Assembly (NCBI GenBank): GCA_965222605.1
Contig: OZ244960.1
Location: forward strand, 4,256,001 to 4,320,000
Direction: 5' to 3'
DNA: 64,000 bases
Source of the DNA: Candidatus Latescibacterota bacterium
GTDB taxonomy: Bacteria > Latescibacterota > UBA2968
The notes beneath the pieces are model-generated. The model had not been told where the DNA came from and made no database searches. It worked only from the letters and a program-made list of their open reading frames with translations. Below are positions 37,509 to 51,708 of this stretch, in pieces (the first letter of the stretch is position 1; every line of letters begins with the position of its first letter). Position numbers and translations under genes: made by a program.

Positions 37509-38654
37509 GTGGAAGTGAAGATTCGAGCGATTGCGATTTCGGTTTTTGAATTGCCTGCTAATACGGGGCGGTTTCGGATGGAACAAGCCGGTCGTGGTGC
37601 CCGCAAGCGATGGGAAAATCGGGGAGCGGGTAAGTCGGCAGAGCAGATACACGTTTTGCATGTGAAAACCGATGAGGGTATCGAAGGGGTATGTACAGTG
37701 GGGGATGCGCGGTACACGACGATGCGTCTTGAAGACCTGGAGCAATTGCGGTTGTTAACGGTTGGCGAAGATCCATTTGATCGCGAACGACTCACTCAAA
37801 AATTACACAAAGCAACGCGCAGCATGTTCACACGCCCTGGATGGTTTGGCGCTTTTGACAATTGTTTGTGGGATATTGCTGGCAAGGTTGCGGGACTGCC
37901 CGTTCACAGTTTGATTGGTCGAGCGCGGTCTTCCTGTGCGGCTTATTACAATTTTAGAAGTGGGTCACAAGAGGAGGCTGTAGCCGATGCAACACAGGCA
38001 GTGAAACGGGGATTTTTGGCTGTAAAGGATCACTTCAGGGGTACGGCAGATGAAAATATCGCGTGTTTTCACGCTGTGCGCGATGCGGTTGGGAGTGATG
38101 TCGATATTTTGCACGATGCCGCAGGGTGTGATTACACGTTGCAAGATGCGATTCGGGTGGGTAAGACTCTGGAGGCGTTGCGGTTTGGGTGGTTTGAAGA
38201 ACCTTTGACAGATCGGGATCAAAAAAATTTGCAGCGTTTGTGTGCCGCGCTGGACATTCCCATTTTGGCGCCTGAGACTTTGATGCACGATGTAGATTTG
38301 AGCGCGCAATGGATTATTTCCGGGGCAACCGATGCCCTGCGTGCCAATGCGCGGCTGGGTACAACTCCGACGTTGAAACTGGCACATTTGGTGGAGATGC
38401 ACGGTGCAAATATTGAATTCAATGGACCGGGTGGGTTGTTTGGGCTGGTGCATGCACATCTGGTTTGTGCCATATCGAATACGAGTTATTACGAGTTTTT
38501 CCCCGGAGGCTCCCGGGATGTGCGCGGTCGTGAGATTGGATTGCTAAATCCTCCTCTGCCCGAGAATGGCCATATTACACCGCCCAATAGTCCCGGATGG
38601 GGTGCCGAATGGGATTGGGAGTTTTTTGAGAAGAAGCGGATAGGAGAGTTATAA
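37509..38654 (+). CDS. Mandelate racemase/muconate lactonizing (enolase superfamily) enzyme
   Basis: DNCLWDIAGK..GLPV..L.G, ILHDA and WFEEP motifs. Confidence 0.88.
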   Translation: MEVKIRAIAISVFELPANTGRFRMEQAGRGARKRWENRGAGKSAEQIHVLHVKTDEGIEGVCTVGDARYTTMRLEDLEQLRLLTVGEDPFDRERLTQKLHKATRSMFTRPGWFGAFDNCLWDIAGKVAGLPVHSLIGRARSSCAAYYNFRSGSQEEAVADATQAVKRGFLAVKDHFRGTADENIACFHAVRDAVGSDVDILHDAAGCDYTLQDAIRVGKTLEALRFGWFEEPLTDRDQKNLQRLCAALDIPILAPETLMHDVDLSAQWIISGATDALRANARLGTTPTLKLAHLVEMHGANIEFNGPGGLFGLVHAHLVCAISNTSYYEFFPGGSRDVRGREIGLLNPPLPENGHITPPNSPGWGAEWDWEFFEKKRIGEL

Positions 38655-38659
38655 AAAGC

Positions 38660-38688
38660 AACCACAGATGGACGCAGATGAACGCAGA
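38660..38688 (+). repeat. Short degenerate tandem repeat (10-bp period)
   Basis: ACCACAGATG GACGCAGATG AACGCAGA. Confidence 0.55.
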
Positions 38689-38708
38689 AAAAAAAGAGGG
38701 CTGGTTTT

Positions 38709-38760
38709 GTACGGGCAGGTTGAACTGCTGTCGCAGTTGTACCCCGTTCGAAACCTGCCC
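38709..38760. repeat. REP-like palindrome interrupted by a 24-bp GGGGTAC-tagged hairpin repeat (copy C, minus strand)
   Basis: GTACGGGCAG-GTT-[GAACTGCTGTCGCAGTTGTACCCC]-GTT-CGAAACCTGCCC. Confidence 0.75.
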
Positions 38761-38787
38761 CTTCGCTGACAACTGAAAGGAGATTTT

Positions 38788-40032
38788 ATGGCTTCTGATA
38801 AACCAAATATTATTCTGATTCTGTCCGATGATTTGGGATATGAATGCCTGGGGTGTTATGGAGGTGAATCATATCAAACGCCCGTGCTGGATGGTTTGAG
38901 CAAAGAGGGTATGCGTTTTGACCATGCATATGCCCTGCCGTTGTGTACGCCGACGCGGTTACAGTTGATGACGGGTAAATACAATTTTCGAAATTGGAGA
39001 GCTTTTGGGGTGATGGATCCCCATGAGCGCACTTTTGGGCATCTGATGAAAGCGGCTGGCTATAAGACGTGTATTTCGGGCAAATGGCAAATGTATAGCT
39101 ATAATCCGCCGGATTTTGAACCCGAGTGGCGCGGCAAAGGGCAACTGGCGGAAGATTCGGGTTTTGATGAGTATTGCTTGTGGCATACGGAACACACGGA
39201 GGATAAGGGATCGCGGTATGCCGATCCAGTAATTCAACAAAATGGGAAGTATTTGGAGGATACAGAGGGCAAGTACGGTCCGGATATTTATACGGCTTAT
39301 ATTTGCGATTATATCGAGCGACATAAGGACGATCCGTTTTTTGTGTATTACCCAATGGCGCTGACACACGGTCCGTTTGAACCGACGCCCCATAGCGAAA
39401 TATGGTCTGAAAACCGGCACGATAGCGGTGTGAAGTATTTTGTGGATATGGTTGAGTATATGGATGTGGTGATTGGGCGAATTGTGGATAAATTGGATGA
39501 ACTCGGTCTGAGAGAGAATACTCTGCTTCTGTTTATAGGCGATAATGGATCGCCCCGTCAGGTGACTTCTATTATCAATGGTCGCGAGTTCCAGGGGGGG
39601 AAGGGTCTTTCGACGGATGCGGGTACGCGGGTGCCACTTATTGCGAGTTGGTCGGGTACGATCCCACCGGGGTCTGTGTGTGATGATTTGATCGATTGCA
39701 GCGATTTTTTGCCGTTGATGATGGATATGGCTGGCACTTCTTTGCCCGAGGACGATGTGTTTGATGGGGTGTCATTTTTGCCTCAGTTAAAGGGCGAGAC
39801 GGGAACGCCGCGCGAGTGGATTTTTGCCCATCACGATCCTCTGCCCGGATGGGGTAAGGTGGGCTACTACTTAAAGCGATGGGCACAGGATAAACGTTGG
39901 AAGCTCTACGATACGGGCGATTTGTATGATGTTGTAGTAGATGAGTTGGAAGAACACCCAATCGTCGATGGAGGTGCAGAAGCAGAGGCAGCGCGACAAA
40001 AATTACAGCCCGTGCTGGATCGGATGAAGTGA
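38788..40032 (+). CDS. Sulfatase (arylsulfatase-like)
   Basis: PNIILILSDDLG, LCTPTR, GKW and GDNG motifs. Confidence 0.93.
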   Translation: MASDKPNIILILSDDLGYECLGCYGGESYQTPVLDGLSKEGMRFDHAYALPLCTPTRLQLMTGKYNFRNWRAFGVMDPHERTFGHLMKAAGYKTCISGKWQMYSYNPPDFEPEWRGKGQLAEDSGFDEYCLWHTEHTEDKGSRYADPVIQQNGKYLEDTEGKYGPDIYTAYICDYIERHKDDPFFVYYPMALTHGPFEPTPHSEIWSENRHDSGVKYFVDMVEYMDVVIGRIVDKLDELGLRENTLLLFIGDNGSPRQVTSIINGREFQGGKGLSTDAGTRVPLIASWSGTIPPGSVCDDLIDCSDFLPLMMDMAGTSLPEDDVFDGVSFLPQLKGETGTPREWIFAHHDPLPGWGKVGYYLKRWAQDKRWKLYDTGDLYDVVVDELEEHPIVDGGAEAEAARQKLQPVLDRMK

Positions 40033-40062
40033 GGCGGCGTTTATCTCGCCGATATTTCCAAC

Positions 40063-40091
40063 TTGACACAGTTTGTGTACAGCAATAAAAT
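40063..40091 (+). promoter_or_regulatory. Sigma70-type promoter of the ATPase/helicase cassette, with an internal inverted repeat
   Basis: TTGACA-N17-TAAAAT; ACACA-GTT-TGTGT overlaps the -35 element and spacer. Confidence 0.7.
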
Positions 40092-40138
40092 TACACGCGA
40101 GCAGAAATCACTTACACTCAAAGCAGAAGGTAATCCAA

Positions 40139-40972
40139 ATGGCAGATCGAGAAGAATTTCTTGAGCAAATGCAAGAGAGATTGACGGATGTGGTCAAGCC
40201 CTATCAACTACAGCAGAACCGCCGTCAAAGAATGGCCGATTTTGTGAAACAATGTGTCCGCTGTGCCGGGCGGAATGACTTTTTTCAACTCGACGAATTG
40301 CTGAAGTCTAAAATGGCACGCAATGTGCAAGAAGAAGTGGGGCTAAAGGAAGGTGCAGAATTTCTATATCAATTGCGTACTTATGCAGATGAACAGGTGG
40401 AGCGATACCGAATCCAATTTATAGAAGACCTGACGACATTAGCCAATGAAGCAAAACTTCCAATAGAGATCGATTTCCCGCGCATTGGAGTACTCAAGGG
40501 CATAGAGGGAGAAGTTGACTTTGCTCAGCGGAAAACTGTAATTAACAAAAAAGCCTTGAAATCCGTAGATCCAAAGCGTATTATTACCGCCCTGCGAAGG
40601 GTAAAGCAGCAACTCTATGATCGCCCTTATGATCCACAGGCATTTATTGACAAACTATATGACGTATATGCGGAAATTCTCAAAAAAGAAAAGCGAGAGA
40701 TGGGGCATCCCGTTGCAATGCAGCAATTATATCTGGAATATGTGTTATCTCTTCAGAGTCGGGCATTTTTTCAGGACATGGACAAGGGAAAGTTTCGAGG
40801 GTATAGCCTGGATCAATTTGCCGTAGATATTTGGCGTTATTTTCAGGCCGGTACTGGGGGCACGTCAAATGGCTATGCTGTGCAGCTAAGACCGGGGCGG
40901 AATAGGGCACTTTGGTTGATTGACAGCGATGGAGAACGGCGGCAGATTACCACCATTGCTTTTCAAACCTAA
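40139..40972 (+). CDS. Hypothetical cytoplasmic protein, first gene of the putative defence cassette
   Basis: 277-aa ORF starting MADREEF; no motif recognised; 15 bp upstream of the first ATPase. Confidence 0.8.
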   Translation: MADREEFLEQMQERLTDVVKPYQLQQNRRQRMADFVKQCVRCAGRNDFFQLDELLKSKMARNVQEEVGLKEGAEFLYQLRTYADEQVERYRIQFIEDLTTLANEAKLPIEIDFPRIGVLKGIEGEVDFAQRKTVINKKALKSVDPKRIITALRRVKQQLYDRPYDPQAFIDKLYDVYAEILKKEKREMGHPVAMQQLYLEYVLSLQSRAFFQDMDKGKFRGYSLDQFAVDIWRYFQAGTGGTSNGYAVQLRPGRNRALWLIDSDGERRQITTIAFQT

Positions 40973-40987
40973 AAAAGGACATGACGC

Positions 40988-42283
40988 ATGACACAAAAAG
41001 ATTTGGAGCAACTCAAACCCTTTGAGGCGCGGGCAATTATTGAAGATCTCCGAAAAGGTAGCGTGCCGATTGAGTATGTGCCCTTTTTTACTGTGGGTCG
41101 CCAGAACTGGTTGAAGTTTATCGAAGAAGACCTGGATAACTACATCGCAGAGGGGGGCGCGAAGGTTCGCTTTGTCAATGGTGACTACGGCGATGGCAAA
41201 ACGCATTTTATGTCGGTTATCAAGCACCTCGCGCTTCAAAAAAAATTCGCCGTGTCTTTTGTGGTGCTCACGCGCGAAGTGCCCATACACAAATTTGAGA
41301 TTGTCTATCAAATTATTGTGCGGCAACTTTGCGGTTCTTTTGAGGGCGTTGGTATCCGACAACTCGTTGATGCGTGGGTCGAAAATCTGAAAACCGATCT
41401 GACAGATGACGCACCCCTTGAAGAACAACTTTTTTTTGTGGGCGAAAGCCTGCGTGCCCTTTCTGGGATGGATCTCAACTTTGCCAACGCTCTGATTGGG
41501 TTGGCAGACAATCGTCTCAGACCTCTCGAGGTAGGTGAAGACGAAGAGGCGCGTGCATATCAGCGGGAGATTCTCTACCAGTGGTTTGAAGGCGCGCGGG
41601 TGAGCAAGCGAGAACTCAAACCGTTCCAGATTTTTGAAGCCCTTGATAAGACCAATAGCAAGCGATTTCTGACCTCGCTCATTGTCTTTTTGCGGCATCT
41701 CAACTACAAGGGCCTCGTGCTGTTGATGGACGAATTGGAAACCGTGATCGCCCAATCGACAACCATTCGCAATGCGTCATACGAAAATGTCCGCTTGCTG
41801 ATCGACAATGCCGAGCAGGCATCTTATTTGCATATTTTTATGTCCATCATTCCCGATGTGACGCTCTCAGAAAAGGGATTTAAGTCCTATGACGCCCTGT
41901 GGAGTCGCGTGCGTTCCATTGGGGAAAGCAAAAGACTGAATTACCGCAGCGTGTTGGTAGATCTTCACAGGACGCCTTTGGAAACGAGCGAGTTGGTCAA
42001 TCTGGGACTTTGCCTGAAACGCATTCACGAACTGTCCTACCGATGGGATGCCCAGGAACAGGTTGATGAAGCGTTGCTTAAAAAGATGTGTGCAGCGCAA
42101 AAGCGCATGGGGCTTTTAAGTGAGGTTCGGCTCTATATCAAGCAAGTCATCCGCATACTCGACATGGCCGAGCAAGGTGTGCCGCCAGACGAAGATATGG
42201 ATATGGCCGAGCAACTCGTGGTCAGCCAGCGGGAAATGGATCAAGAAAAAGTTGAGCAACTTCAACCGACGTGGGATGCCTGA
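40988..42283 (+). CDS. BrxD/DUF2791-like P-loop ATPase 1
   Basis: ARAIIEDLRKGSVP...TVGR, Walker A GDYGDGKTH, Walker B LLMDELE, G.KSYDALWSR. Confidence 0.85.
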   Translation: MTQKDLEQLKPFEARAIIEDLRKGSVPIEYVPFFTVGRQNWLKFIEEDLDNYIAEGGAKVRFVNGDYGDGKTHFMSVIKHLALQKKFAVSFVVLTREVPIHKFEIVYQIIVRQLCGSFEGVGIRQLVDAWVENLKTDLTDDAPLEEQLFFVGESLRALSGMDLNFANALIGLADNRLRPLEVGEDEEARAYQREILYQWFEGARVSKRELKPFQIFEALDKTNSKRFLTSLIVFLRHLNYKGLVLLMDELETVIAQSTTIRNASYENVRLLIDNAEQASYLHIFMSIIPDVTLSEKGFKSYDALWSRVRSIGESKRLNYRSVLVDLHRTPLETSELVNLGLCLKRIHELSYRWDAQEQVDEALLKKMCAAQKRMGLLSEVRLYIKQVIRILDMAEQGVPPDEDMDMAEQLVVSQREMDQEKVEQLQPTWDA

Positions 42284-43500
42284 TGACCGACTTTCACACC
42301 CCATCCAATGAAACGGAATTCCACCTGCGGCGTGCAACAGAACGCCTGCGGGAGGGGCTTTTTGATCCGGTTGCGGTTCGCTTGCTCACAGCCCGCGAAA
42401 GCCGCCTGAACAAAATCATTGACCGCGACTTTCAAAAACTCGATCAAAATAAGGCGACCCACCTGTGCATCTGTGGGGCTTATGGACAGGGTAAATCGCA
42501 CAGTTTGAACTATATCCAGGACAGGGCCCTGCGCGAAAATTTTGTGACCAGCCTGATCAATTTGGACCCTCGAGAAATTCCCTTTCACGATATGCGACGG
42601 GTCTATCATGCCCTGGTCGCCTCTATGAGATTTCCAGACACAGACACCTCATGGGCAGCGCGATGGCGCGTTTTTGCCGCTGGCCTGCCGCACGAAGACT
42701 TTGAAGACCGGGTCGCCCCGCTTTTACACCGTGAAATGCCACACCTGTTCCGATCTGTCCTGACCGCGATGGCTCAAAAAACAATCTCCCTTTCAAAGCG
42801 ACAGCGCGGCACCAAAAAACACGCCTCATACCGCCCTCGTGAATTTCCCTACCTGCTTTCCCGCGCGCTTACAGGCGATGTGGTTCCGGTCTATCGCCTG
42901 CGCCATGCCCTCAAGTACCGACAGGTTGATTTTTACAAAGATGAATCACTTACCTGTAAAGGTGCAGAGCCTTATCTTCAAATGATTCGCGGATTGGGGC
43001 AGCTTTTCCAGATGATGGGCTACCGGGGATGGGTGTTGTTGTTTGACGAAGGAGAATCGATTTCTCAAGTGCGCGTGACCAGCCGCAGCCGCAGTTACCA
43101 GATTCTGGATCAGATGCTTTTCCCTGAAGTTCCGTCCGCATCTGTTTATCCGGTTTTTGCCTTTACAGACGACTTTTTTTACAAAGTAGATGAAGAAGAA
43201 TACGACCGCGTGCGAATCCGCAACGAAGAGGAAATTCCCTATTTTGAGAAAAATTACGCCCGTGCATGGACGGGTCTGAAACGCTATCCCCTTCAGGATT
43301 TGTCTGCCAAAGAGTGGCACGCGTTGATCGAAAAATTGATGCACTTGCATGCCAGAGCTTATCAGTGGCAGCCCGATGCCGATGTGCAGCGCGACATGAC
43401 CCGACGATTATCGCACATGCAAGGGCAGGAGACGCGCTATCGGCTCAAAGGTCTGGTCGATGAATTGGACCTCGCACATCAAGCCCAAATACTGATTTAA
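42283..43500 (+). CDS. BrxD/DUF2791-like P-loop ATPase 2
   Basis: TGATG coupling to ATPase 1; RRATERLREG, Walker A GAYGQGKSH, Walker B GWVLLFDEGE. Confidence 0.8.
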   Translation: MTDFHTPSNETEFHLRRATERLREGLFDPVAVRLLTARESRLNKIIDRDFQKLDQNKATHLCICGAYGQGKSHSLNYIQDRALRENFVTSLINLDPREIPFHDMRRVYHALVASMRFPDTDTSWAARWRVFAAGLPHEDFEDRVAPLLHREMPHLFRSVLTAMAQKTISLSKRQRGTKKHASYRPREFPYLLSRALTGDVVPVYRLRHALKYRQVDFYKDESLTCKGAEPYLQMIRGLGQLFQMMGYRGWVLLFDEGESISQVRVTSRSRSYQILDQMLFPEVPSASVYPVFAFTDDFFYKVDEEEYDRVRIRNEEEIPYFEKNYARAWTGLKRYPLQDLSAKEWHALIEKLMHLHARAYQWQPDADVQRDMTRRLSHMQGQETRYRLKGLVDELDLAHQAQILI

Positions 43501-43529
43501 ACCCTATCAGCACATGTTTTGTAACCACC

Positions 43530-46500
43530 ATGTCTGAACCTATCTCGCCTCTGCTTCAACTGCCCAATACCTGCCGCGCATTCTACGGCTCTTTTCCCCA
43601 TCTCTATCCCTTTCAAAAGCAAGCGATTGAACCGCTCTTGCAGGGCAAAGATCTGATCTTACAATCGGCAACCGGCTCTGGCAAAACCGAAGCCGTGCTG
43701 GCGCCGTGTATCGAGCGCGTGATTCAATCGGGGCGGCGACAAACCGCGCTTTATGTGGTGCCCACCCGCGCCCTGGCCGTGGATTTGGAACGCCGTTTGA
43801 CGCCTGTCTTAAAGGACAGACTCGGCCTGCAAATTGGAATACGCACGGGCGATTTCAAACGGGCGGGCGGGGCATTGCCCGATTTGTTATTGACAACGCC
43901 CGAATCTTTTGATGTGCTCATGGGCAGTCCAAATGCAGATTTAAAACAGTTTGTACAGCGCATTCGCACGGTCATTATCGATGAAGCACATCCTTTTATT
44001 CATCAGTATCGCGGGCGGCAATTATCCTATTTGCTCACGCGCTTGCAACGCCGCATCGCCCATCCCGTGCAAAAGATCGCCCTTTCCGCCACGCTTTCCG
44101 ATGTCGAGGAGGTCGCCCGTTTTTTTGGCTTCCGAACCGATACCGTTTTCCTGACCGAATCTGTCCAACGCGATATTGTCCCCCATCTGATCCATCTCAA
44201 AAACGATGAGGTCGAACTCGTCGCGCTCCTAAACGATCTCTACGAAACCTACGAGTATCGCAAAATTTTGTTATTCGCCAACAGCCGGGGGTGTTGCGAC
44301 CGGCTGTTTTCTCTTTTGTCGCGTCAGGGTGCGTTTCAAGGTGTTACTGACCTCCACTACTCCAACCTCAATGCCAGCACGCGCCGCGCCGTGGAATACC
44401 GATTTCGCCGCCGCGAACACGCCCTTTGCATTGCCACCAGCACCCTTGAACTCGGCATAGATATCGGCGATGTGGATAGCGTCTTGCTCTACGAACCGCC
44501 GGATTCCATATCGGCCTTTCTCCAGCGCATTGGTCGCTCCAACCGGCGAGAGGGGCGTACGCACTTTTGGGGAATATGCCGCGGCGCAGATGCACAGGCG
44601 CAATTGCTCAGATTTTTGGGAATGCTCAACAGGGCGCGCCGCGGCCATATTGAAACACCGCAACCCAAAACTCTGCCCAGCGTTCTCGTCCAGCAAATGC
44701 TCTCCTGCCTCTACGAAAAGAAAACTATCACGCAGTCTGCTCTTTGCGATTTGTTTCCAGACCAGCGAGATATGATCGCACCGTTGTTTGAGGCCATGGC
44801 GCGGCAACAGTGGCTGCAAAAAGATCGCGTCACGGGCCTTTTTAAGGGTGGATGGTGCTATCGCGATTGTTTTTTAGAACGGCGTATTTGGAGCAATTTT
44901 CCCGACATGGAAGAGGATTATGTGCTGGAATATGCGGGCGAAGCCATTGCAGACTTGCCCAAATTCATCGTTCGGCAATTGGAACTCGGCGACCGCGTGC
45001 AACTGACGGGCAAACGATTGCGCGTTTTGAATATTGAAACGGGTGAACGCAAAAGAGTTATTGCCCAACCCACCGATCAAATAGAAACCAAAGAGCTTTT
45101 CTGGCTGGGTGCGGGGTTTCGGGTTTCTTATGAAGTCGCACAATCGGTTCGAGATGTACTTCAGACAGATGTGCAACAAAGCGCGTCTGGCTTATTTTCC
45201 CGCACGCGAAAATTGTTCAACGATGCGGCAAAAAGGCTAAAGCGCGTGGTCGTTTTGCACAATGGCATCGAAGTTGAGCGCAGCTTGAACAACTTGTATC
45301 GCTATCGCACCTATCTCGGTTCTGTAGGCAATCTCGTGCTTCAGTGGATTATTGAACGCGATTACGGCGATCTCAAAGATTTTATGGTGACTTCCGATAG
45401 TATCGGTATCGATTGTTCTCATTGGATTGATTTTCAAACGCTCCACCTCCCACAAGACCGCGAAGATTTTGTCCAATGGGTGGCAAATCATCTCGAATCC
45501 CTGTATAGCCTGTTTCAGCTCAATGCCTTTTGCGAGGCATTGCCCGGCGCCTTGTTGGTGCAAGAAGTGACAGATTTCCTCTTTGACCCGCGCGTTGCCA
45601 AAACCTTCCAGCACTACCTGAAACACCCTTCGGAAATCGCATCTGGCGATCCTGGCCTGCTCACGGAAGATATCCATGTGACCGAATCTCACCCCATTTT
45701 TTTGGATACAAAAATACAAACCGATCTGCTCACCAGGGAAAAACAGCGGTGGCATGCGGATCGACACGCGGAACAGCCATCTGACCTACAGTATCGCCCG
45801 CGGTCACTCACGGGCACAATGGTGGGCGCGTATTTTTTGCACCATCAATGTGAACGGTGGTTGGCCCTCAATTTTGTTCCAGCTAAACAAAGGCGGTGGC
45901 GAGATAGCGATACAGATTTGGACACTCTTCGGATGGAACGGGGAAACCTGCACGAAAAACAGGTGCTGAATCGCATTCGGAATGTCTTGCACGAAGTGCC
46001 GGCCTTTGATACCAACGGCACGCGACTTTCTCTCAAATCGCGATTTGAAACAACCCGAACGCTGTTGAAAGATCTGGCACGCGACGCAACCTCCAATCAA
46101 TCTACATTTTTGTTTCAAGCTGTCCTGATCCAACCATCTGTTTTGGGACAACAAGACCACTGGGTGAGCGAGGTAGATGGCATCGGTATTCCCGATCTCA
46201 TCCGCATTTCAAAAGAAGACCGCGGCGTTGTGTTGCAAGTGGGCGATATCAAAGACAGTCGCAGGCCCTACGAGACACAAAAGTGGCAGGTTGCATTTTA
46301 CGCCTATATGCTCGACAGCTTGATCGCACAGCACGAGTTGCCCATGCGCGTGGCGTCTTCGGGATTTTTGATGCTGCGTCCCGCACAGGAAAACGAAGCC
46401 CCCGAACCGCATTTTTTTGATCTCGAACCCTACCTGGCGGCACTTCCTATGCTGTTTCGAAATATGGGCAACGTATTGCAACGCGCACCTGCCCGCGCGC

Positions 46501-49211
46501 GTTATCACCTCCAAACCCACTGTACGGGGTGCCCCAATTTTGAGGCGTGTTATCGGGAAGCACTTCAGACAGAGGATATTCACCTTTTGCCGCATCTGAG
46601 CGCGGGGACGTTGCAAAAGTTTCGCCAATGCGGTCTCAAAACTATGGCATCTGCCCATGCGTGGTTTGAATCTGCGTCCGCTTCAGAAGGCGATCTTTTC
46701 AGCCCACATCAAAAAACACAACTTTCGGGTCAACTCGCCGCGCTTCAGGCAAATAAAATTGGTCTAAAGAAAGAAAAAACGCGGTTTTATCCGAGCAATC
46801 TGTCCACCGCCATTTTCATATATGTCGTCGAAGATCCCCTTTCTGGGCTCCCACGCGCGATAGGTTGGCGCGCTGTGCAGGGGGCAACGGTGGTCGAGAA
46901 CCATATCTGGCATGTCGCATCGGAGCGCGAGTTATCAGAGGCATTGCAGGACTTCACAGCGCGTTTTTTGTCCGTCTGGAATCAGAGCATCAAAGGCGGA
47001 CGGGGACCGCATATCTTTCATTTTGGAGCGCGTTGCTGGCAAACTTTTGAAGAATGGTGCGAGTCATCAGAAGACCTGTCTTTTTTGTTTTTGCCCCATC
47101 GCAACCACCGAACAGATTTGCAAAAGCTGATCGCGTCGCACTTCGACTTTCCAATGCCGGGAAATCCGACGCTTTTTGCCCTCAATCGCCTGTTGGGTCT
47201 CAATGCCGAACTTCCCGAACCGCAAAGTCTGTTTCATTTTGATGACGACGAATGGATACAAAATGAAGACGAAAAAAAAATGGTTGACTATCTCAACGCG
47301 GTATTGAGCCTGAAAATATCGCTGTGGCAATGGACATCATCGCACTTGACGAGCGATTGGGAACAAGACGAATGGAAAGATGAGGAACACAGCCCGCAAA
47401 CGGCCTATTTAAATTTTCTATCAGAGGAGCAGCGGCTCCGCGAAGAAGATGTGCTCGCCTTGCAAGCCCTGCCACTGTCAGAACGCGTTGAACGCTTTCG
47501 CGCGATTGGTCCCATCCGTTTTCGGAAAACGACGCTTGACGACGAAGGCCGCTTCCTCTACGAATTTCAAACAGAAGCGGGCCTCTCAAAATTTCGCGCG
47601 GGCGATTTTCTCAAACTTGCACCTGTTGGCCTGTTAGATGTGCAAAACGGTTTGTCCGTCATCCTGACAGATCACAGCTCGGAACGCCTGTGGGTGCAGT
47701 CTCGGCAGGGACGATTGGCCTTAAACGAGAGACTTTTGTATTCTCTGGAAGAGGACCTGACCGATTGGAATGGCCCTCGCCTGGTTCACGCTGTTCAGGC
47801 TGTTTTTTTCGAAGATCATTTCCACCTCCTATCCAAGCTATTTTCTGGCACCTGGCGCACGGCAAGAGAACCCGACGCGCTGAGATGGGTGCATAATTGG
47901 ATGCGCGGATTTGGCGCGATATCCGGACTCAATGCAATGCAACAACAGGCACTATCATTGCCTTTTAAGCATCGCTTGAGCCTGATTGAAGGGCCGCCAG
48001 GAACGGGTAAAACACACTTATTGGGCTGGATATTGGTTGCATTGATTCTGCATGCTCAAGAGCAGGGCAGACCGCTGCGTATTGCCGTCAGCGCGTTGAC
48101 GCATCAGGCCATTGACCAGGTGCTGAAAAAAGTGGTCGCGCTCGTCAAACAACACGGCTTGCAGGGCTTTCCCGCCCGATGCTTCAAATTGGGACGGTGG
48201 GATTTGACAGAGCGCGGGGTAGAACCCTTAGAGGATGTGGAAACACTCGCAGAATCTCCTTATGCAATTGTAGGTGCCACGGGATTTGGTCTCTATCAGC
48301 TACTCGAAGGTCGCAAAGGGACTTTCCCGCAGGTATTTGATTGGGTTGTGTTTGATGAGGCATCTCAAATGCTCATTCCCCAGGCCCTGTTGAGCCTGCT
48401 CTATGGCAAGGGAAATTTTCTGTTTGCCGGAGATACAAAACAATTACCGCCCATTGTCCTGGGAGATTACAAAGGGAAGGAAATGAGCATACATCATTCC
48501 GCGCTGTCCCATCTTATCAATCAATACGATCCCTCGCACCGCGTTCGATTGGATCGCACGTATCGGATGAACGAAGACCTGTGTTCTTTTCCCAGTCACA
48601 TGTGGTATGACCGCGATCTTCGCGCCCACGCTGGCAATGCACAAAACCGACTCGTGCTGCAACATACCGACCACCGCGATCTTTTAGACCGCGTTCTCGA
48701 TCTCAAAAAACCAGTTGTACTCCTCATCGTAGATCACCAGGGCCACCACCAGAAATCCGATGAGGAAATTGAGATTACAACCCAACTCGCTCATCGCCTG
48801 ATTGCCGAACACGGTTTGGATCCCGATCAAATCGCGCTGATTTCTCCCCACCGCGCACAAAACAACGCCACTGCGGACCGCCTCACACAGCGACTTGGAG
48901 ATGCCAACGCCAAACTGCCCTTAATCGATACGGTAGAACGCGTGCAAGGCGCAGAGCGCGATGTGATTTTGTATGCGTTCACCACCTCCGATCCCGACTA
49001 TGTCTCCAGCCCATTTTTGAACAACCCAAATCGCTTTAATGTGGCAATCACACGCGCCCGACAAAAGCTGATTGTGGTGGGCAGCAAAGCATTTTTCTCT
49101 GCCATTCCACAAACAGAGGACGCCTTAAAAGCCAACCGCTGTTTTAAGGCGTTTTACGAATTTTGTCGAGAACGAGATAGCCTCTTTTTTTTGGGTGGAA
49201 CTAACTCCTAA
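43530..49211 (+). CDS. 1893-aa fusion: Lhr-like SF2 helicase, PD-(D/E)XK RecB-like nuclease and Upf1/DNA2-like SF1 helicase
   Basis: SF2: ATGSGKT, PTRAL, DEAH, SAT, QRIGRSNR. Nuclease: GIPDL...GDIK...QVAFY with a C...CxxCxxxxxC pattern. SF1: GPPGTGKT, DEASQ, GDTKQLPP, YRM, QGAERD, RFNVAITRAR. Confidence 0.9.
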   Translation: MSEPISPLLQLPNTCRAFYGSFPHLYPFQKQAIEPLLQGKDLILQSATGSGKTEAVLAPCIERVIQSGRRQTALYVVPTRALAVDLERRLTPVLKDRLGLQIGIRTGDFKRAGGALPDLLLTTPESFDVLMGSPNADLKQFVQRIRTVIIDEAHPFIHQYRGRQLSYLLTRLQRRIAHPVQKIALSATLSDVEEVARFFGFRTDTVFLTESVQRDIVPHLIHLKNDEVELVALLNDLYETYEYRKILLFANSRGCCDRLFSLLSRQGAFQGVTDLHYSNLNASTRRAVEYRFRRREHALCIATSTLELGIDIGDVDSVLLYEPPDSISAFLQRIGRSNRREGRTHFWGICRGADAQAQLLRFLGMLNRARRGHIETPQPKTLPSVLVQQMLSCLYEKKTITQSALCDLFPDQRDMIAPLFEAMARQQWLQKDRVTGLFKGGWCYRDCFLERRIWSNFPDMEEDYVLEYAGEAIADLPKFIVRQLELGDRVQLTGKRLRVLNIETGERKRVIAQPTDQIETKELFWLGAGFRVSYEVAQSVRDVLQTDVQQSASGLFSRTRKLFNDAAKRLKRVVVLHNGIEVERSLNNLYRYRTYLGSVGNLVLQWIIERDYGDLKDFMVTSDSIGIDCSHWIDFQTLHLPQDREDFVQWVANHLESLYSLFQLNAFCEALPGALLVQEVTDFLFDPRVAKTFQHYLKHPSEIASGDPGLLTEDIHVTESHPIFLDTKIQTDLLTREKQRWHADRHAEQPSDLQYRPRSLTGTMVGAYFLHHQCERWLALNFVPAKQRRWRDSDTDLDTLRMERGNLHEKQVLNRIRNVLHEVPAFDTNGTRLSLKSRFETTRTLLKDLARDATSNQSTFLFQAVLIQPSVLGQQDHWVSEVDGIGIPDLIRISKEDRGVVLQVGDIKDSRRPYETQKWQVAFYAYMLDSLIAQHELPMRVASSGFLMLRPAQENEAPEPHFFDLEPYLAALPMLFRNMGNVLQRAPARARYHLQTHCTGCPNFEACYREALQTEDIHLLPHLSAGTLQKFRQCGLKTMASAHAWFESASASEGDLFSPHQKTQLSGQLAALQANKIGLKKEKTRFYPSNLSTAIFIYVVEDPLSGLPRAIGWRAVQGATVVENHIWHVASERELSEALQDFTARFLSVWNQSIKGGRGPHIFHFGARCWQTFEEWCESSEDLSFLFLPHRNHRTDLQKLIASHFDFPMPGNPTLFALNRLLGLNAELPEPQSLFHFDDDEWIQNEDEKKMVDYLNAVLSLKISLWQWTSSHLTSDWEQDEWKDEEHSPQTAYLNFLSEEQRLREEDVLALQALPLSERVERFRAIGPIRFRKTTLDDEGRFLYEFQTEAGLSKFRAGDFLKLAPVGLLDVQNGLSVILTDHSSERLWVQSRQGRLALNERLLYSLEEDLTDWNGPRLVHAVQAVFFEDHFHLLSKLFSGTWRTAREPDALRWVHNWMRGFGAISGLNAMQQQALSLPFKHRLSLIEGPPGTGKTHLLGWILVALILHAQEQGRPLRIAVSALTHQAIDQVLKKVVALVKQHGLQGFPARCFKLGRWDLTERGVEPLEDVETLAESPYAIVGATGFGLYQLLEGRKGTFPQVFDWVVFDEASQMLIPQALLSLLYGKGNFLFAGDTKQLPPIVLGDYKGKEMSIHHSALSHLINQYDPSHRVRLDRTYRMNEDLCSFPSHMWYDRDLRAHAGNAQNRLVLQHTDHRDLLDRVLDLKKPVVLLIVDHQGHHQKSDEEIEITTQLAHRLIAEHGLDPDQIALISPHRAQNNATADRLTQRLGDANAKLPLIDTVERVQGAERDVILYAFTTSDPDYVSSPFLNNPNRFNVAITRARQKLIVVGSKAFFSAIPQTEDALKANRCFKAFYEFCRERDSLFFLGGTNS

Positions 49212-49326
49212 CCCCTAACACTTTGTTCCATCCGAGATGGCTATTGTGAACATATCGTTCAATACATGTTTGCTTTGATGTGGTGTAATTTTTTTTATAA
49301 CAATAAGTTATTGCTCCGGACGGTTC

Positions 49327-49341
49327 TGGCATAATCCTTGC
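49327..49341 (+). promoter_or_regulatory. Putative sigma54 promoter upstream of comM
   Basis: TGGCATAATCCTTGC (GG-N10-GC) about 50 bp upstream of the start; IHF-like TAACAATAAGTTA just upstream. Confidence 0.6.
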
Positions 49342-49391
49342 CTGATTGTAGTGCTTCTTTCAGTTGGTTCCTTTCAGGCAAGGAGGTTTTG

Positions 49392-50930
49392 ATGACTGCG
49401 CGTGTGTTGAGTTGTGCAACACTGGGTATTGATGCGTATATCGTGCATATTGAGGCGGATATTTCGCGTCGGCTTCCCTCGTTTTCAGTGGTGGGTTTGC
49501 CCGATAGTGCTGTGAAGGAAAGCCGGGACCGGGTGATGGCTGCGATTAAAAATGCCGGGCGAACATTTCCAAATAATCGGATTACGGTGAATTTGGCACC
49601 GGCAGATATCCGAAAAGAAGGCTCGGCATTTGATTTGCCGATTGCCATAGGCATTATTGCCGCAATGAGCGGTTCAATTTCACCCGAGAAGCTGTCGCAA
49701 TATCTCATTTTGGGCGAGTTGGCTTTAGATGGCAGGGTGCGTCCTGTGCGCGGTGCGCTGTCAATGGCTGTGGAAGCCAAAAAGGCGGGCTTAAAAGGGT
49801 TGCTCATTCCTGTGGAAAATGCGCGGGAGGCGGCGATTACCGGCGATTTGAATGTTTTGCCGGTGCGCGATTTGGGTGAGGCACTGGATTTTTTGGAGGA
49901 CTACTGCGATATTATGCCCTTTGAAGTCAATAGCAAAGCGATTTTCCGGCAGGCGCGGACCCATCGGGTGGATTTTAAGGATGTGCGCGGACAAGAACAT
50001 GCAAAGCGCGCGCTGGAGGTGGCGGCGGCGGGCGCGCATAACGCGATTCTTATGGGGCCACCCGGGTCGGGGAAGACGATGCTCGCCAGAAGATTGCCGA
50101 CCATTTTACCCGATCTGACCCTGGACGAGGCACTGCAGACGACAAAAATTCACTCGGTGGCGGGGTTGCTGCCACCCGATACGGCAGTGGTGGCGATAAG
50201 GCCCTTTCGGTCGCCGCATCACACGATTTCAGATGCGGGATTGATCGGCGGTGGTCCCTATCCCCGACCGGGAGAAGTGTCGATGGCACATCACGGGGTG
50301 CTGTTTTTGGATGAGCTTCCCGAATTTAAGAAACAGGTTTTGGAGTCCCTGCGCCAACCTATTGAGGACAGTTTTGTGACGATTGCACGGGCGGCGATAT
50401 CGCTTTCATATCCCGCGCAGTTTATGCTCGTTTGCGCTATGAATCCGTGTCCATGCGGGTATTTGGGCGATCCACACCACGAGTGTATTTGCTCGCCACC
50501 TGTGATCCAACGCTATATCAATCGAATCTCGGGACCGTTGATGGATCGCATTGATATTCACGTAGAAGCCCCGGCTGTGCAGTATGAAGAACTGGTCAAT
50601 GAACCCGCTGGCGAGTCTTCCGCAGAGGTTCGCAAGCGCGTGCAAGCCGCCCGGCAAATGCAATTGGAACGGTTTGGGGATTATACAGATTTGTTTAGCA
50701 ACGCGCACATGGGGCCGCGAGAGATTCGGTTGTTTTGTAAAATAGATGATAAGAGCCAGGAGTTGCTGCGGATGGCGATTACGCGATTGGGGCTGTCGGC
50801 GCGGGCTTATGATCGAATCCTGAAGGCGAGCCGCACGATAGCAGACCTGGAGGGTGAAGAGGATATCCAGTCGCGCCATGTTGCCGAGGCGATTCAATAT
50901 CGCAGTCTGGACAGGAGATTGTGGGAGTGA
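49392..50930 (+). CDS. comM: YifB/ComM Mg-chelatase-like AAA+ ATPase
   Basis: VGLPDSAVKESRDRV, GPPGSGKTMLA, RPFRSPHH, LFLDELPEF and MNPCPCG motifs; AGGAGG RBS. Confidence 0.93.
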   Translation: MTARVLSCATLGIDAYIVHIEADISRRLPSFSVVGLPDSAVKESRDRVMAAIKNAGRTFPNNRITVNLAPADIRKEGSAFDLPIAIGIIAAMSGSISPEKLSQYLILGELALDGRVRPVRGALSMAVEAKKAGLKGLLIPVENAREAAITGDLNVLPVRDLGEALDFLEDYCDIMPFEVNSKAIFRQARTHRVDFKDVRGQEHAKRALEVAAAGAHNAILMGPPGSGKTMLARRLPTILPDLTLDEALQTTKIHSVAGLLPPDTAVVAIRPFRSPHHTISDAGLIGGGPYPRPGEVSMAHHGVLFLDELPEFKKQVLESLRQPIEDSFVTIARAAISLSYPAQFMLVCAMNPCPCGYLGDPHHECICSPPVIQRYINRISGPLMDRIDIHVEAPAVQYEELVNEPAGESSAEVRKRVQAARQMQLERFGDYTDLFSNAHMGPREIRLFCKIDDKSQELLRMAITRLGLSARAYDRILKASRTIADLEGEEDIQSRHVAEAIQYRSLDRRLWE

Positions 50931-50967
50931 GATCACAATTGTAAAACTATGTCCAGGACGGTATATT

Positions 50968-51288
50968 ATGACATTCCTCGAAACATCTGTATTTACACGT
51001 TGCGTTCAAAATGTACTGACCGACGATAGTTATCACCGCTTGCAACTTCTGTTGATACATCGCCCCGATACGGGTGTTGTTATTCCCGGTAGCGGTGGTA
51101 TAAGAAAGATGCGGTGGTCTCCACCGGGACACGGCAAGCGCGGTGGCGTTCGCATCATTTACTATTGGGCAGTGAAGAAGCAGCAAATTTTGATGCTTTT
51201 GATGTATTCAAAAAGTGAGCGAGATGATCTAACGTCAGCACAGCTCAGAATTTTAAGACGCGTTGTTGAGCAGGAGTATCCAAAATGA
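50968..51288 (+). CDS. Type II TA toxin, RelE/HigB-like
   Basis: FLETSVF...IPGSGGIRKMRW...GKRGGVRIIYY...YSKSERDDL. Confidence 0.88.
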   Translation: MTFLETSVFTRCVQNVLTDDSYHRLQLLLIHRPDTGVVIPGSGGIRKMRWSPPGHGKRGGVRIIYYWAVKKQQILMLLMYSKSERDDLTSAQLRILRRVVEQEYPK

Positions 51289-51626
51289 AAAAAGAACTGT
51301 TTGATGATTTACTCCAAAGTGTGCGTGAGGGAGGTGCTATTATGCGCGGTGAGATGGCACCGAGTCGCGTATTTGATTTTACGCCTTTGGATGTCAAAGC
51401 CATTCGCGAAAAGCTCAATAAGTCTCAACATGAATTTGCACTCATGATCGGTGTGAGTACGTCAACGCTACAAGATTGGGAAAAAGAGTGTTGCATTCCC
51501 CAGAGGGTTGCCCGTGCAGTATTAAAAATTGTGGAAAAGAATCCTCAAGAGTTTGCCGAGGTATTAGAGGTGTGCAAAAAATCTCTTGTAGGGAAGCCAC
51601 AGATTTCGTCCCGTCAACAGGATTAA
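51285..51626 (+). CDS. HigA-like XRE-HTH antitoxin
   Basis: ATGA overlap with the toxin; DVKAIREKLNKSQHEFALMIGVSTSTLQDWE. Confidence 0.85.
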   Translation: MKKELFDDLLQSVREGGAIMRGEMAPSRVFDFTPLDVKAIREKLNKSQHEFALMIGVSTSTLQDWEKECCIPQRVARAVLKIVEKNPQEFAEVLEVCKKSLVGKPQISSRQQD

Positions 51627-51708
51627 GTTCATCCTGAGCTATGACAAGCGAATCTTAAAACAAAAAGCGGAGCATTGACAAGTGCTTCGCTTTTTTTAGG
51701 CTTGCAAT

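Follow-up and report, generated by a model that had tools for sequence, protein, structure and literature searches.

Introduction

In type 2 BREX (Pgl), the ATPase BrxD and the helicase BrxHI form a tightly linked dyad, and BrxD is proposed to load or activate the helicase (available text of PMC12839542). Here we describe a four-gene cassette with BrxD-like ATPases and a BrxHI-type helicase from a Candidatus Latescibacterota bacterium (GTDB lineage Bacteria; Latescibacterota; UBA2968), contained in a stretch of 64,000 nt called the window below (assembly GCA_965222605.1, contig OZ244960.1, positions 4,256,001 to 4,320,000 of the forward strand). The last gene of the cassette, gene 4, encodes a single chain of 1,893 amino acids (aa), in which the BrxHI-type helicase of superfamily 2 (SF2) is followed by a nuclease of the Cas4/Dna2 type and by a helicase of superfamily 1B (SF1B).

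Hachiman (HamAB) and Druantia (DruE-DruH) combine an SF2 helicase with a nuclease degrading DNA after sensing of DNA structures or damage (accessible parts of PMC12278908 and 10.64898/2026.05.13.724313), and the accessible part of the Hachiman paper assigns SngC, BrxHI, DruE, and DpdJ to a single SF2 clade associated with defence. The bacterial Dna2-like protein Bad from Geobacillus, according to the abstract of PMC7430649, binds an iron-sulfur (Fe-S) cluster via four cysteines and is both an endonuclease on single-stranded DNA (ssDNA) and a 5'-3' translocase/helicase. A phylogenomic study of Cas4 reports UvrD-Cas4 fusions and a link between a COG1205 helicase and a Cas4-like nuclease, the gene 4 type not being described in its available sections (PMC5704561). 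As far as these partly available sources go, Dna2-like proteins in a defence setting are not without precedent. In the literature found, neither a fusion of Lhr/BrxHI, Cas4-like, and SF1B parts nor its cassette is described; loci of this kind may be included in the supplementary tables accompanying PMC12839542 and the YprA preprint.

The cassette resembles the BrxD-BrxHI dyad in that the helicase of gene 4 matches the whole BrxHI profile and the genes of BrxD-family ATPases are adjacent. It differs from the dyad in having two BrxD paralogues, compared to one in BREX, a Dna2-like extension of 1,190 residues on the helicase, and an extra protein of 277 aa. No PglZ, PglX, BrxC, or PglW gene is found near the cassette (PglX, BrxC, and PglW were looked for in the neighbourhood only), and its identity as a BREX system is rejected on this ground; the sole PglZ-domain match of the genome (4418670–4419245, 64.6 bits, in an open frame of 534 aa) lies at a distance of ~113 kb. 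With Shango (SngA-SngB-SngC) the cassette shares the small size, an SngB-like ATPase, an SngC-like helicase, and a small leading gene, and differs from it in having two ATPases and in the BrxD and BrxHI models outscoring those of SngB and SngC; canonical Shango is also rejected, as neither PADLOC nor Pfam (E <= 0.001) matches the leading gene to SngA or TerB, and to our knowledge Shango has no nuclease-SF1B extension. Similar to Hachiman and Druantia, gene 4 couples an SF2 helicase to a nuclease, with nuclease families and partners differing from theirs, and we know of no second motor, of the SF1B type, in the same chain in either system.

Results

Two Helicases and a Nuclease in One Reading Frame

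The first-pass annotation of the window had claimed one polypeptide with the motif sets of an SF2 helicase, an Fe-S-type nuclease, and an SF1 helicase. We observe just this: the frame is uninterrupted over 1,893 codons, with 0 internal stops, and each motif lies where it had been placed. The gene and its domains are as follows.

43530..49211, + strand: gene 4, fusion of an SF2 helicase, a putative Fe-S nuclease, and an SF1B helicase, 1,893 aa (open reading frame (ORF), profile, structure, and homologue searches)
43530..44729, + strand: SF2 DExH helicase core (RecA1 + RecA2), residues 1–400 (DEAD 27–194, Helicase_C 232–339, Lhr structures, motifs in 30/30 homologues)
44730..45608, + strand: BrxHI/Lhr-type accessory domains, residues 401–693 (BrxHI profile match; domain names from the available text of PMC12839542)
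45804..46586, + strand: Cas4/Dna2/EXO5-type PD-(D/E)XK nuclease, residues ~759–1019 (weak profile match, model fold, conserved cysteines)
46800..47339, + strand: RNase-H-like (DnaQ/PF13482-like) domain, residues ~1091–1270 (model topology, Foldseek, Pfam in homologues)
47394..47927, + strand: helical stalk and beta-barrel (1B-like), residues ~1289–1466 (model; Ighmbp2/Upf1 fold match)
47928..49208, + strand: SF1B (Upf1/Dna2-like) helicase core, residues 1467–1893 (AAA_11, AAA_12; solved relatives; motifs in 29–30/30 homologues)

The SF2 motifs comprise the Walker A motif GSGKT with K52 (nt 43683), DEAH (residues 151–154), SAT (186–188), and QRxGRxxR (332–339, ending at nt 44546). In the nuclease, GIPD (886–889, from nt 46185), GDIK (905–908), and QVAFY (920–924) are accompanied by a lone upstream cysteine, C774 in HHQC (nt 45849), and by the triad C998-x2-C1001-x5-C1007 in CTGCPNFEAC (residues 998–1007, nt 46521–46550). 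The SF1 motifs start with GPPGTGKT (1488–1495, from nt 47991), followed by DEASQ (1609–1613) and then by the later motifs. The Pfam matches to both motors are well above the cut-offs (DEAD 4.4e-38, Helicase_C 8.3e-16, AAA_11 2e-22, AAA_12 6.6e-30).

Conservation was scored in 30 full-length homologues with 46–89% identity to gene 4. The SF2 residues K52, D151, and E152, the SF1B residues K1494, D1609, E1610, and R1842, and each of the four cysteines (C774, C998, C1001, and C1007) are kept in 30/30 homologues, the latter agreeing with the 1+3 cysteine arrangement of Cas4/Dna2/AddB-type nucleases recognized at first pass. Among other nuclease residues, D889, K908, and Q920 are each kept in 29/30 and Y924 in 26/30 homologues, while position 906 is D in 28/30 and E in 2/30. 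Overall, the ATPase and translocation motifs of both motors are retained in 30/30 homologues (29/30 at a few positions). By these alignments, conservation of the catalytic residues at the three enzymatic centres exceeds chance, and since it extends across the family, both motors, belonging to different superfamilies, are apparently active.

The N-terminal Half Is a BrxHI-Type Helicase

The PADLOC model of BrxHI (PDLC02503) matches residues 22–693 of gene 4 over profile positions 22–687 of 698 (2.9e-87), and the SngC model of Shango, residues 22–618 (3e-73). The solved structures closest to the N-terminus by sequence are those of Lhr, 5v9x (2.7e-33) and 7lhl. The best NCBIfam match of this part is TIGR04121, the ligase-associated DNA damage response DEXH helicase, at 204.7 bits compared to the cut-off of 850, and the other curated Lhr-type cut-offs are likewise missed (NF010338, 159.1/849; NF007284, 82.8/1496 bits). 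The Lhr label initially given to the SF2 part is thus retained only with respect to the nearest structures: the NCBIfam Lhr-type scores are far under the cut-offs, the match to BrxHI extends over practically the entire profile, and on this profile evidence the first 700 residues constitute a defence helicase of the BrxHI/SngC type, complete with accessory domains, and not a canonical Lhr. The names of the accessory domains, that is, winged helix, beta-barrel, and Lhr-CTD-like, are carried over by description from BrxHI in the available text of PMC12839542.

The C-terminal Half Resembles Dna2 and Bad

A structure model, whose construction had been suggested at first pass, covers residues 700–1467 and was based on a 40-row alignment (predicted local distance difference test, pLDDT, 86.4; predicted template modelling score, pTM, 0.79). 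The pLDDT falls to ~40 at residues 700–719, and the linker between the halves, approximately residues 694–722, is predicted to be flexible.

By sequence alone the nuclease is weak, with PDDEXK_1 at E 1.2e-4 (22.6 bits, cut-off 22) and Cas4 models at E 1e-4 to 1e-3. It is clear by fold in the Foldseek comparison with the PDB, matching Dna2 (4.2e-7), Cas4 (1.4e-4; for 8d3l the template modelling score, TM, normalized to the target is 0.55), and EXO5 (7.3e-4). Further fold matches are MGME1, RecE, lambda exonuclease, and the nuclease domains of AdnAB and AddAB (ranks 13–14 and 36–37).

The nuclease is followed by an RNase-H-like domain of beta-beta-beta-alpha-beta-alpha topology, for which ERI3 (7lpz) is matched with a TM to target of 0.47. 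The Pfam search yields no PF13482 (RNase_H_2) match in the gene 4 protein itself; this family is matched in two relatives, the split homologue from locus L044 (4.3e-14) and the free-standing protein P0155 (1.1e-4), both considered below. According to our own mapping of motifs onto the model, acidic residues D1102 and D1196 are each kept in 27/30 homologues, the ExoI-position E in just 10/30, and no conserved ExoII aspartate is seen among the 30, and hence the inserted domain is probably degenerate and non-catalytic. The TM0106 family (TIGR03491) with RNase_H_2 likewise has its RNase-H-like domain after a Cas4-like nuclease, and gene 4 differs from it in the TIGR03491 score (15.6 bits, cut-off 97.45); no literature pairing TM0106 with a helicase was found.

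A helical stalk and a 1B barrel then stand N-terminal to domain 1A of the SF1B motor, as in the Upf1, Ighmbp2, and Dna2 helicases. They match Ighmbp2 (4b3f) over 157 columns with a root-mean-square deviation (rmsd) of 3.4 A (E 1.4e-4), and also Upf1. The motor itself has motifs Q and I–VI, with AAA_11 and AAA_12 above the cut-off. Its nearest solved relatives by sequence are Dna2 5ean (9.3e-23, residues 1464–1860), Upf1 (1.1e-20), Ighmbp2, and Sen1; models of Mokosh MkoA are matched as well, and matches to UvrD-helicase are marginal (2.2e-7, with no single stretch passing alone).

The order of a four-cysteine PD-(D/E)XK nuclease, putatively binding an Fe-S cluster, a stalk with a barrel, and an SF1B motor is that of Dna2 and Bad, and Dna2 is the best match of the C-terminal half by both sequence and fold, although the overall superposition of the model on Dna2 is poor (TM 0.14, rmsd 26 A). 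We read the C-terminal 1,190 residues, from the model and the profile matches, as one Dna2/Bad-like nuclease-helicase module with an inserted RNase-H-like domain; this insert, the SF2 fusion, and the AAA+ partner genes set gene 4 apart from Dna2 and Bad.

The fastest-diverging stretch of gene 4 is window ~46900–48300 (residues ~1125–1590). Compared to the closest relative, L003, identity is 96.4% in the N-terminal third, 77.6% in the middle third, and 89.5% in the C-terminal third. The fast divergence of this stretch could stem from diversifying selection or from the degenerate RNase-H-like domain being under relaxed constraint.

The Fusion Is Genuine

An assembly chimera or a decaying pseudogene has to be considered, and the first-pass annotation had pointed to window 45700–45800 as the place to check. 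A word-indexed search of 5.8 billion proteins yielded 1,048 hits among 7,999 scored candidates, and in the 120 homologues listed both DEAD and AAA_11/12 are present in 118, with lengths of 1,882–2,174 aa and identity down to 42%, the remaining two being N-terminally truncated. The source names of the matches listed include Gemmatimonadetes, Latescibacteria, SAR324, Desulfococcaceae, Desulfobacula, and several Electrothrix. When residues 700–1893 were used in an exhaustive HMMER scan of 1.84 billion representatives, the top hits were again ~1,850–2,200 aa long and matched from residue ~704–737 on.

Independent contigs agree with this. A contig of 7,263 nt from run X1 spans window 43000–46441 with 0 differences, and the suspected junction is also bridged by contigs of two other studies, X3 (45582–46327) and X5 (45519–46870); over window ~46900–48300 the contigs of these two studies become fragmentary and of low depth. 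Numerous independent full-length homologues, the junction bridged in three studies, and the conserved catalytic residues leave the chimera or pseudogene explanation with a practically negligible probability; no point supporting it was found, and we regard it as refuted as far as sequence data show. An RNA library (X21) contributes two short contigs at window 44685–45124 with a depth of ~3, too sparse for a claim of expression.

The family is found widely among uncultured environmental phyla, and a curated model of the whole fusion is missing from the profile libraries searched.

Upstream Genes of the Cassette

Gene 4 is the last of four co-oriented genes, read as a self-contained operon and separated by gaps of 15, –13 (or –1), and 29 nt, in the order of a 277-aa protein, two BrxD-like AAA+ ATPases, and the fusion.

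40031..49217, + strand: four-gene accessory cassette, 9,187 bp (presence/absence compared to same-genus genomes)
40063..40091, + strand: candidate sigma-70-like promoter TTGACA-17-TAAAAT, 11/12 positions (best of 9 sites; 48 nt 5' of ATG 40139)
40139..40972, + strand: gene 1, 277 aa (ORF listed from TTG 40073; homologues begin at ATG 40139)
40988..42283, + strand: gene 2, BrxD-like ORC/Cdc6-type AAA+ ATPase, 431 aa (PF10923 1.6e-55)
42271..43500, + strand: gene 3, second, more divergent BrxD-like ATPase, 409 aa (PF10923 2e-22; BrxD 2.3e-18)

Both ATPases have intact Walker motifs, GDYGDGKT and LMDE in gene 2 (G65–T72, D248, and E249 invariant in 13/13) and GAYGQGKS and LFDE in gene 3 (Walker residues also invariant in 13/13). 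In PADLOC, gene 2 matches BrxD (1.4e-43) and SngB (2.1e-33). The scores with the NCBIfam BrxD model NF033438 are 146 bits for gene 2 and 65 bits for gene 3, under the cut-off of 350. Counted from ATG 42283, gene 3 encodes 405 aa and overlaps the stop of gene 2. A complex of the two products is predicted with an ipSAE of 0.72, while none of three controls scores above 0.00; at least 82% of contacts recur between runs, and the partners have a pLDDT of 81 or more. This ipSAE mark is reached by 58/80 solved complexes and by 2/110 mismatched pairs. The modelling thus supports, and does not prove, binding of the gene 2 and gene 3 products to each other.

Gene 1 has no match in Pfam or PADLOC (E <= 0.001) or in NCBIfam. 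In its model (pLDDT 89.8), a long helical hairpin at the N-terminus precedes an alpha/beta domain at the C-terminus. No specific structural relative was found: the wide VIA-align search yields generic helical-hairpin matches (best Z 8.3, 70 residues), and the Atlas search, unnamed clusters only. Homologues of gene 1 stand upstream of distant cassettes, with 49–62% identity, and also in the short-type and split cassettes described below, with 19–27%.

The total of nine sigma-70-like sites does not exceed that in shuffles (7.5 +/- 2.9); the leader site is the best of the region, and its position is suggestive of a promoter.

Distribution and Mobility

A full-length orthologue of gene 4 is present in 9/168 genomes of the phylum, namely in the window's genome, in 4/20 others of the genus, and in four genomes from three other genera. 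In two complete genomes of the same genus (G083 and G080) the end of the sulfatase gene (window 40030) is joined to window 49218 via ~14 bp, and in a third (G072) the cassette is replaced by a gap of ~5 bp, with flanks in all three collinear with the window at ~90% identity; in G085 the two flanking genes are ~0.5 kb apart. No terminal direct or inverted repeats were found at the cassette ends, and no integrase, transposase, or other recombinase gene inside. Judging from these alignments, the cassette is a precise presence/absence polymorphism in the genus and is horizontally mobile.

All three upstream genes also precede the fusion in four related genomes, these being the close relatives reached by a scan of genome-collection contigs with the fusion protein. 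The metagenome scan yielded 22 long-type loci, that is, those with the full fusion, and 21 of them retain some upstream DNA. In 12 of the 21, all three genes, or those for which the contig is long enough, are directly upstream (40–65% protein identity), and in two (L018 and L024) a BrxD2 remnant is separated by inserted genes.

The latter two arrangements look like insertions into the cassette. In L024 (275–3888), the first 32 codons of the homologue are at 275–370, the gene restarts at 2719, and a 578-aa ORF with Schlafen AlbA_2 and HATPase_c_4 sits between the two starts; in L018 (1–2603), ~2.4 kb of other ORFs lie between the BrxD2 remnant and the helicase. In one more locus, L005 (1098–7256), the homologue is split into ORFs of 1,037 aa and 1,005 aa by a stop or frameshift and is preceded by an HRDC-HTH_40 protein in place of the BrxD genes.

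The insertion site in the window is the region upstream of a gene for a ComM/YifB-type Mg-chelatase-like AAA+ protein (ChlI, Mg_chelatase, and Mg_chelatase_C; window 49338–50930), and a fragment of a ComM-like gene is also observed downstream of the cassette in L007. Other neighbours in the window are a racemase, a penicillin amidase, and, just downstream of the ComM-like gene, a pair of a RelE-like ORF (PF06296, 4.7e-5, under the cut-off) and a helix-turn-helix (HTH_3) ORF at window 50854–51626. The stretch with this pair (~50941–51656) is missing in G083 and G072, where its flanks abut; it is a further small accessory insertion, and the two ORFs may be a toxin and its antitoxin. Upstream of the sulfatase gene, at window 38654–38766, there are short intergenic repeats of ~30–45 nt resembling REP (repetitive extragenic palindromic) or MITE (miniature inverted-repeat transposable) elements, with 40 further partial copies in the window's genome (79–100% identity) and many more in same-genus genomes.

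Fused, Split, and Separate Forms of the Modules

Helicases of ~700 aa with 27–44% identity to the N-terminal part of gene 4 define loci of the short type (L027–L074 and L083, n = 50). In 37/50 of these, the helicase is preceded by two BrxD-like genes, and five of the BrxD-BrxD-helicase loci additionally contain a remote homologue of gene 1. A four-gene set of this kind is located on plasmid pDESTI.01 of Desulfomonile tiedjei beside an AbiEi gene.

The split form in L044 consists of genes for a 284-aa protein, BrxD, BrxD, and a 709-aa helicase, followed by a separate protein of 1,172 aa with PDDEXK (weak), RNase_H_2, AAA_11/12, and the HC-x2-C-x5-C motif. It adjoins a DUF499 gene, and DUF499 and DUF3780 are among its neighbours. 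The next-best relatives of the C-terminal half are free-standing PDDEXK + SF1B proteins of 1,236–1,410 aa. On the evidence of these sequences, the nuclease and the SF1B motor form one module, which occurs within the fusion, as a protein of its own, or encoded by a gene next to that of the helicase.

A quick tree was made for 80 helicase cores, with support from the Shimodaira-Hasegawa-like approximate likelihood ratio test (SH-aLRT) only; in it, all 26 rows of the long type group together in a single clade (SH-aLRT 100) that lies within the short-type rows. As L044 falls elsewhere, the tree suggests one fusion event and an independent juxtaposition of the same two modules in L044.

Discussion

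With modest confidence, we favour the cassette being an accessory DNA-surveillance machine, probably acting against phages or plasmids, that comprises ATPases, a BrxHI-type helicase, and a Dna2-like DNA-degrading half. The two ATPases would form a hetero-oligomer controlling the BrxHI-type helicase or loading it on a DNA substrate, which is the role suggested for BrxD with BrxHI in type 2 BREX. The Dna2-like half, once engaged, would translocate 5'-3' on ssDNA and cut the strand, the outcome being degradation of foreign (phage or plasmid) DNA. The best PADLOC matches for three of the four genes are to defence models (BrxD, BrxHI, SngB, and SngC). The BrxHI-type part, the Dna2-like module, and the mobile cassette point to surveillance under regulation, with sensing or loading possibly assigned to one half and degradation to the other.

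Several observations weigh against this. Lhr and Dna2 proteins are mainly known for roles in DNA repair, and the short-type cassettes have no recognizable nuclease. In 7/21 long-type loci (L005, L014, L016, L019, L020, L021, and L026) no BrxD gene is seen in the available 1.1–4.6 kb of upstream DNA, and hence genes of the fusion can occur, at least locally, without those of the ATPases; as these seven loci fall in two subclades of the quick tree, they are read as two secondary separations. The neighbours of the cassette differ by locus and are mostly metabolic or housekeeping genes (ten large flanking ORFs were mostly metabolic), the flanks in the window being the sulfatase and ComM/ChlI-like genes. 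PADLOC hits in 41 flanking ORFs of ten loci represent 25 models, each in a single ORF (among them DpdF/PsyrT-type helicase, DUF499, DUF3780, HmaC, mad2, and RmrA), and clear enrichment of defence islands around the cassette is not shown in this set. Full-length copies are present in 0/951 matching plasmid records (at least 80% coverage), which contain short-type or partial matches only, and in 0/5 phage records; viral contigs gave one partial SF2 match.

Gene 4 might rather be a single-polypeptide analogue of RecBCD, AddAB, or AdnAB, serving defence or repair, in which, by analogy with the respective families, an Lhr-type motor would move 3'-5' and the SF1B motor 5'-3' on opposite strands of a duplex end, both thereby advancing in one direction while the single nuclease degrades DNA; we regard this as possible, if somewhat doubtful. 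The gene shares with these machines a RecB-family nuclease (with the Fe-S staple in AddB) and two motor domains thought to be opposite in polarity, and its nuclease fold also matches AdnAB and AddAB. Both motors retain their motifs practically throughout the homologues, and their nearest solved relatives come from a 3'-5' family (Lhr 5v9x/7lhl) and from 5'-3' families (Dna2, Upf1, and Ighmbp2). Moreover, because a fusion of one origin has been retained across several phyla, the two halves are expected to act together. However, they also occur as independent units, in the nuclease-free short-type cassettes, in the split form, and as free Dna2-like proteins, and so a sensor with an effector fits at least as well; a poorly predicted linker also separates them. 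RecBCD-type machines are near-universal, consist of two or three subunits, use SF1A and SF1B motors (or an inactive motor), and need no AAA+ partners, whereas gene 4 is accessory, has one chain with one nuclease, and pairs SF2 with SF1B, and no Chi-recognition element is known for it. No SF1A motor of the RecB/AddA type carries the nuclease, the 3'-5' candidate being SF2 and the nuclease preceding the SF1B motor. The BrxHI-type SF2 part, the free-standing Dna2-like module, and the mobile cassette with BrxD ATPases together argue against a stand-alone RecBCD analogue.

Accessory repair or replication-fork processing of the host genome, such as end resection or removal of flaps or R-loops, is in line with the mostly non-defence flanking genes and with TIGR04121 being the best NCBIfam match of the N-terminal part, and Lhr-type helicases and Dna2/Bad enzymes act in repair, as is known for the families and, for Bad, from its abstract. 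Yet the TIGR04121 score is far under the cut-off, defence models are the best for three of the four genes, the short-type plasmid cassette adjoins an AbiEi gene, and the split form adjoins DUF499 and DUF3780. The patchy distribution within the phylum and the clean indel between complete genomes of one genus make such a role less likely, and we consider it improbable. Still less probable is a target of RNA or RNA:DNA hybrids, e.g., phage transcripts or R-loops, in place of duplex DNA ends. Matches of the SF1B half to Upf1, Ighmbp2, Sen1, and Mokosh MkoA models and the presence of an RNase-H-like domain are in line with it, as is the unwinding of RNA:DNA hybrids by Lhr helicases, but the RNase-H-like domain lacks the conserved full acidic set, the nuclease is of the Cas4/Dna2/EXO5 ssDNA type, and Bad, the closest characterized full module, acts on DNA according to its abstract.

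A farther-reaching form of the surveillance reading would make the cassette a new class of prokaryotic immune effector, the first single chain in which one Fe-S nuclease is flanked by a 3'-5' motor of SF2 and a 5'-3' motor of SF1B, loaded on invading DNA by a heteromeric ORC/Cdc6-like BrxD pair and an adaptor of a previously unseen fold, that is, a licensed one-chain RecBCD for defence. We consider this rather doubtful. The fold searches with gene 1 gave no specific match, from which newness of its fold does not follow.

Under the surveillance reading that we favour, the helicase-ATPase core known from BREX (BrxD-BrxHI) and Shango (SngB-SngC) is here joined directly to a recognizable Dna2-like effector. 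As this effector is observed both fused and as a separate neighbouring gene, a testable hypothesis is that the helicase-ATPase core would license DNA degradation. One chain with two intact motors of different superfamilies would also represent a compact model for coordination of motors with opposite polarity.

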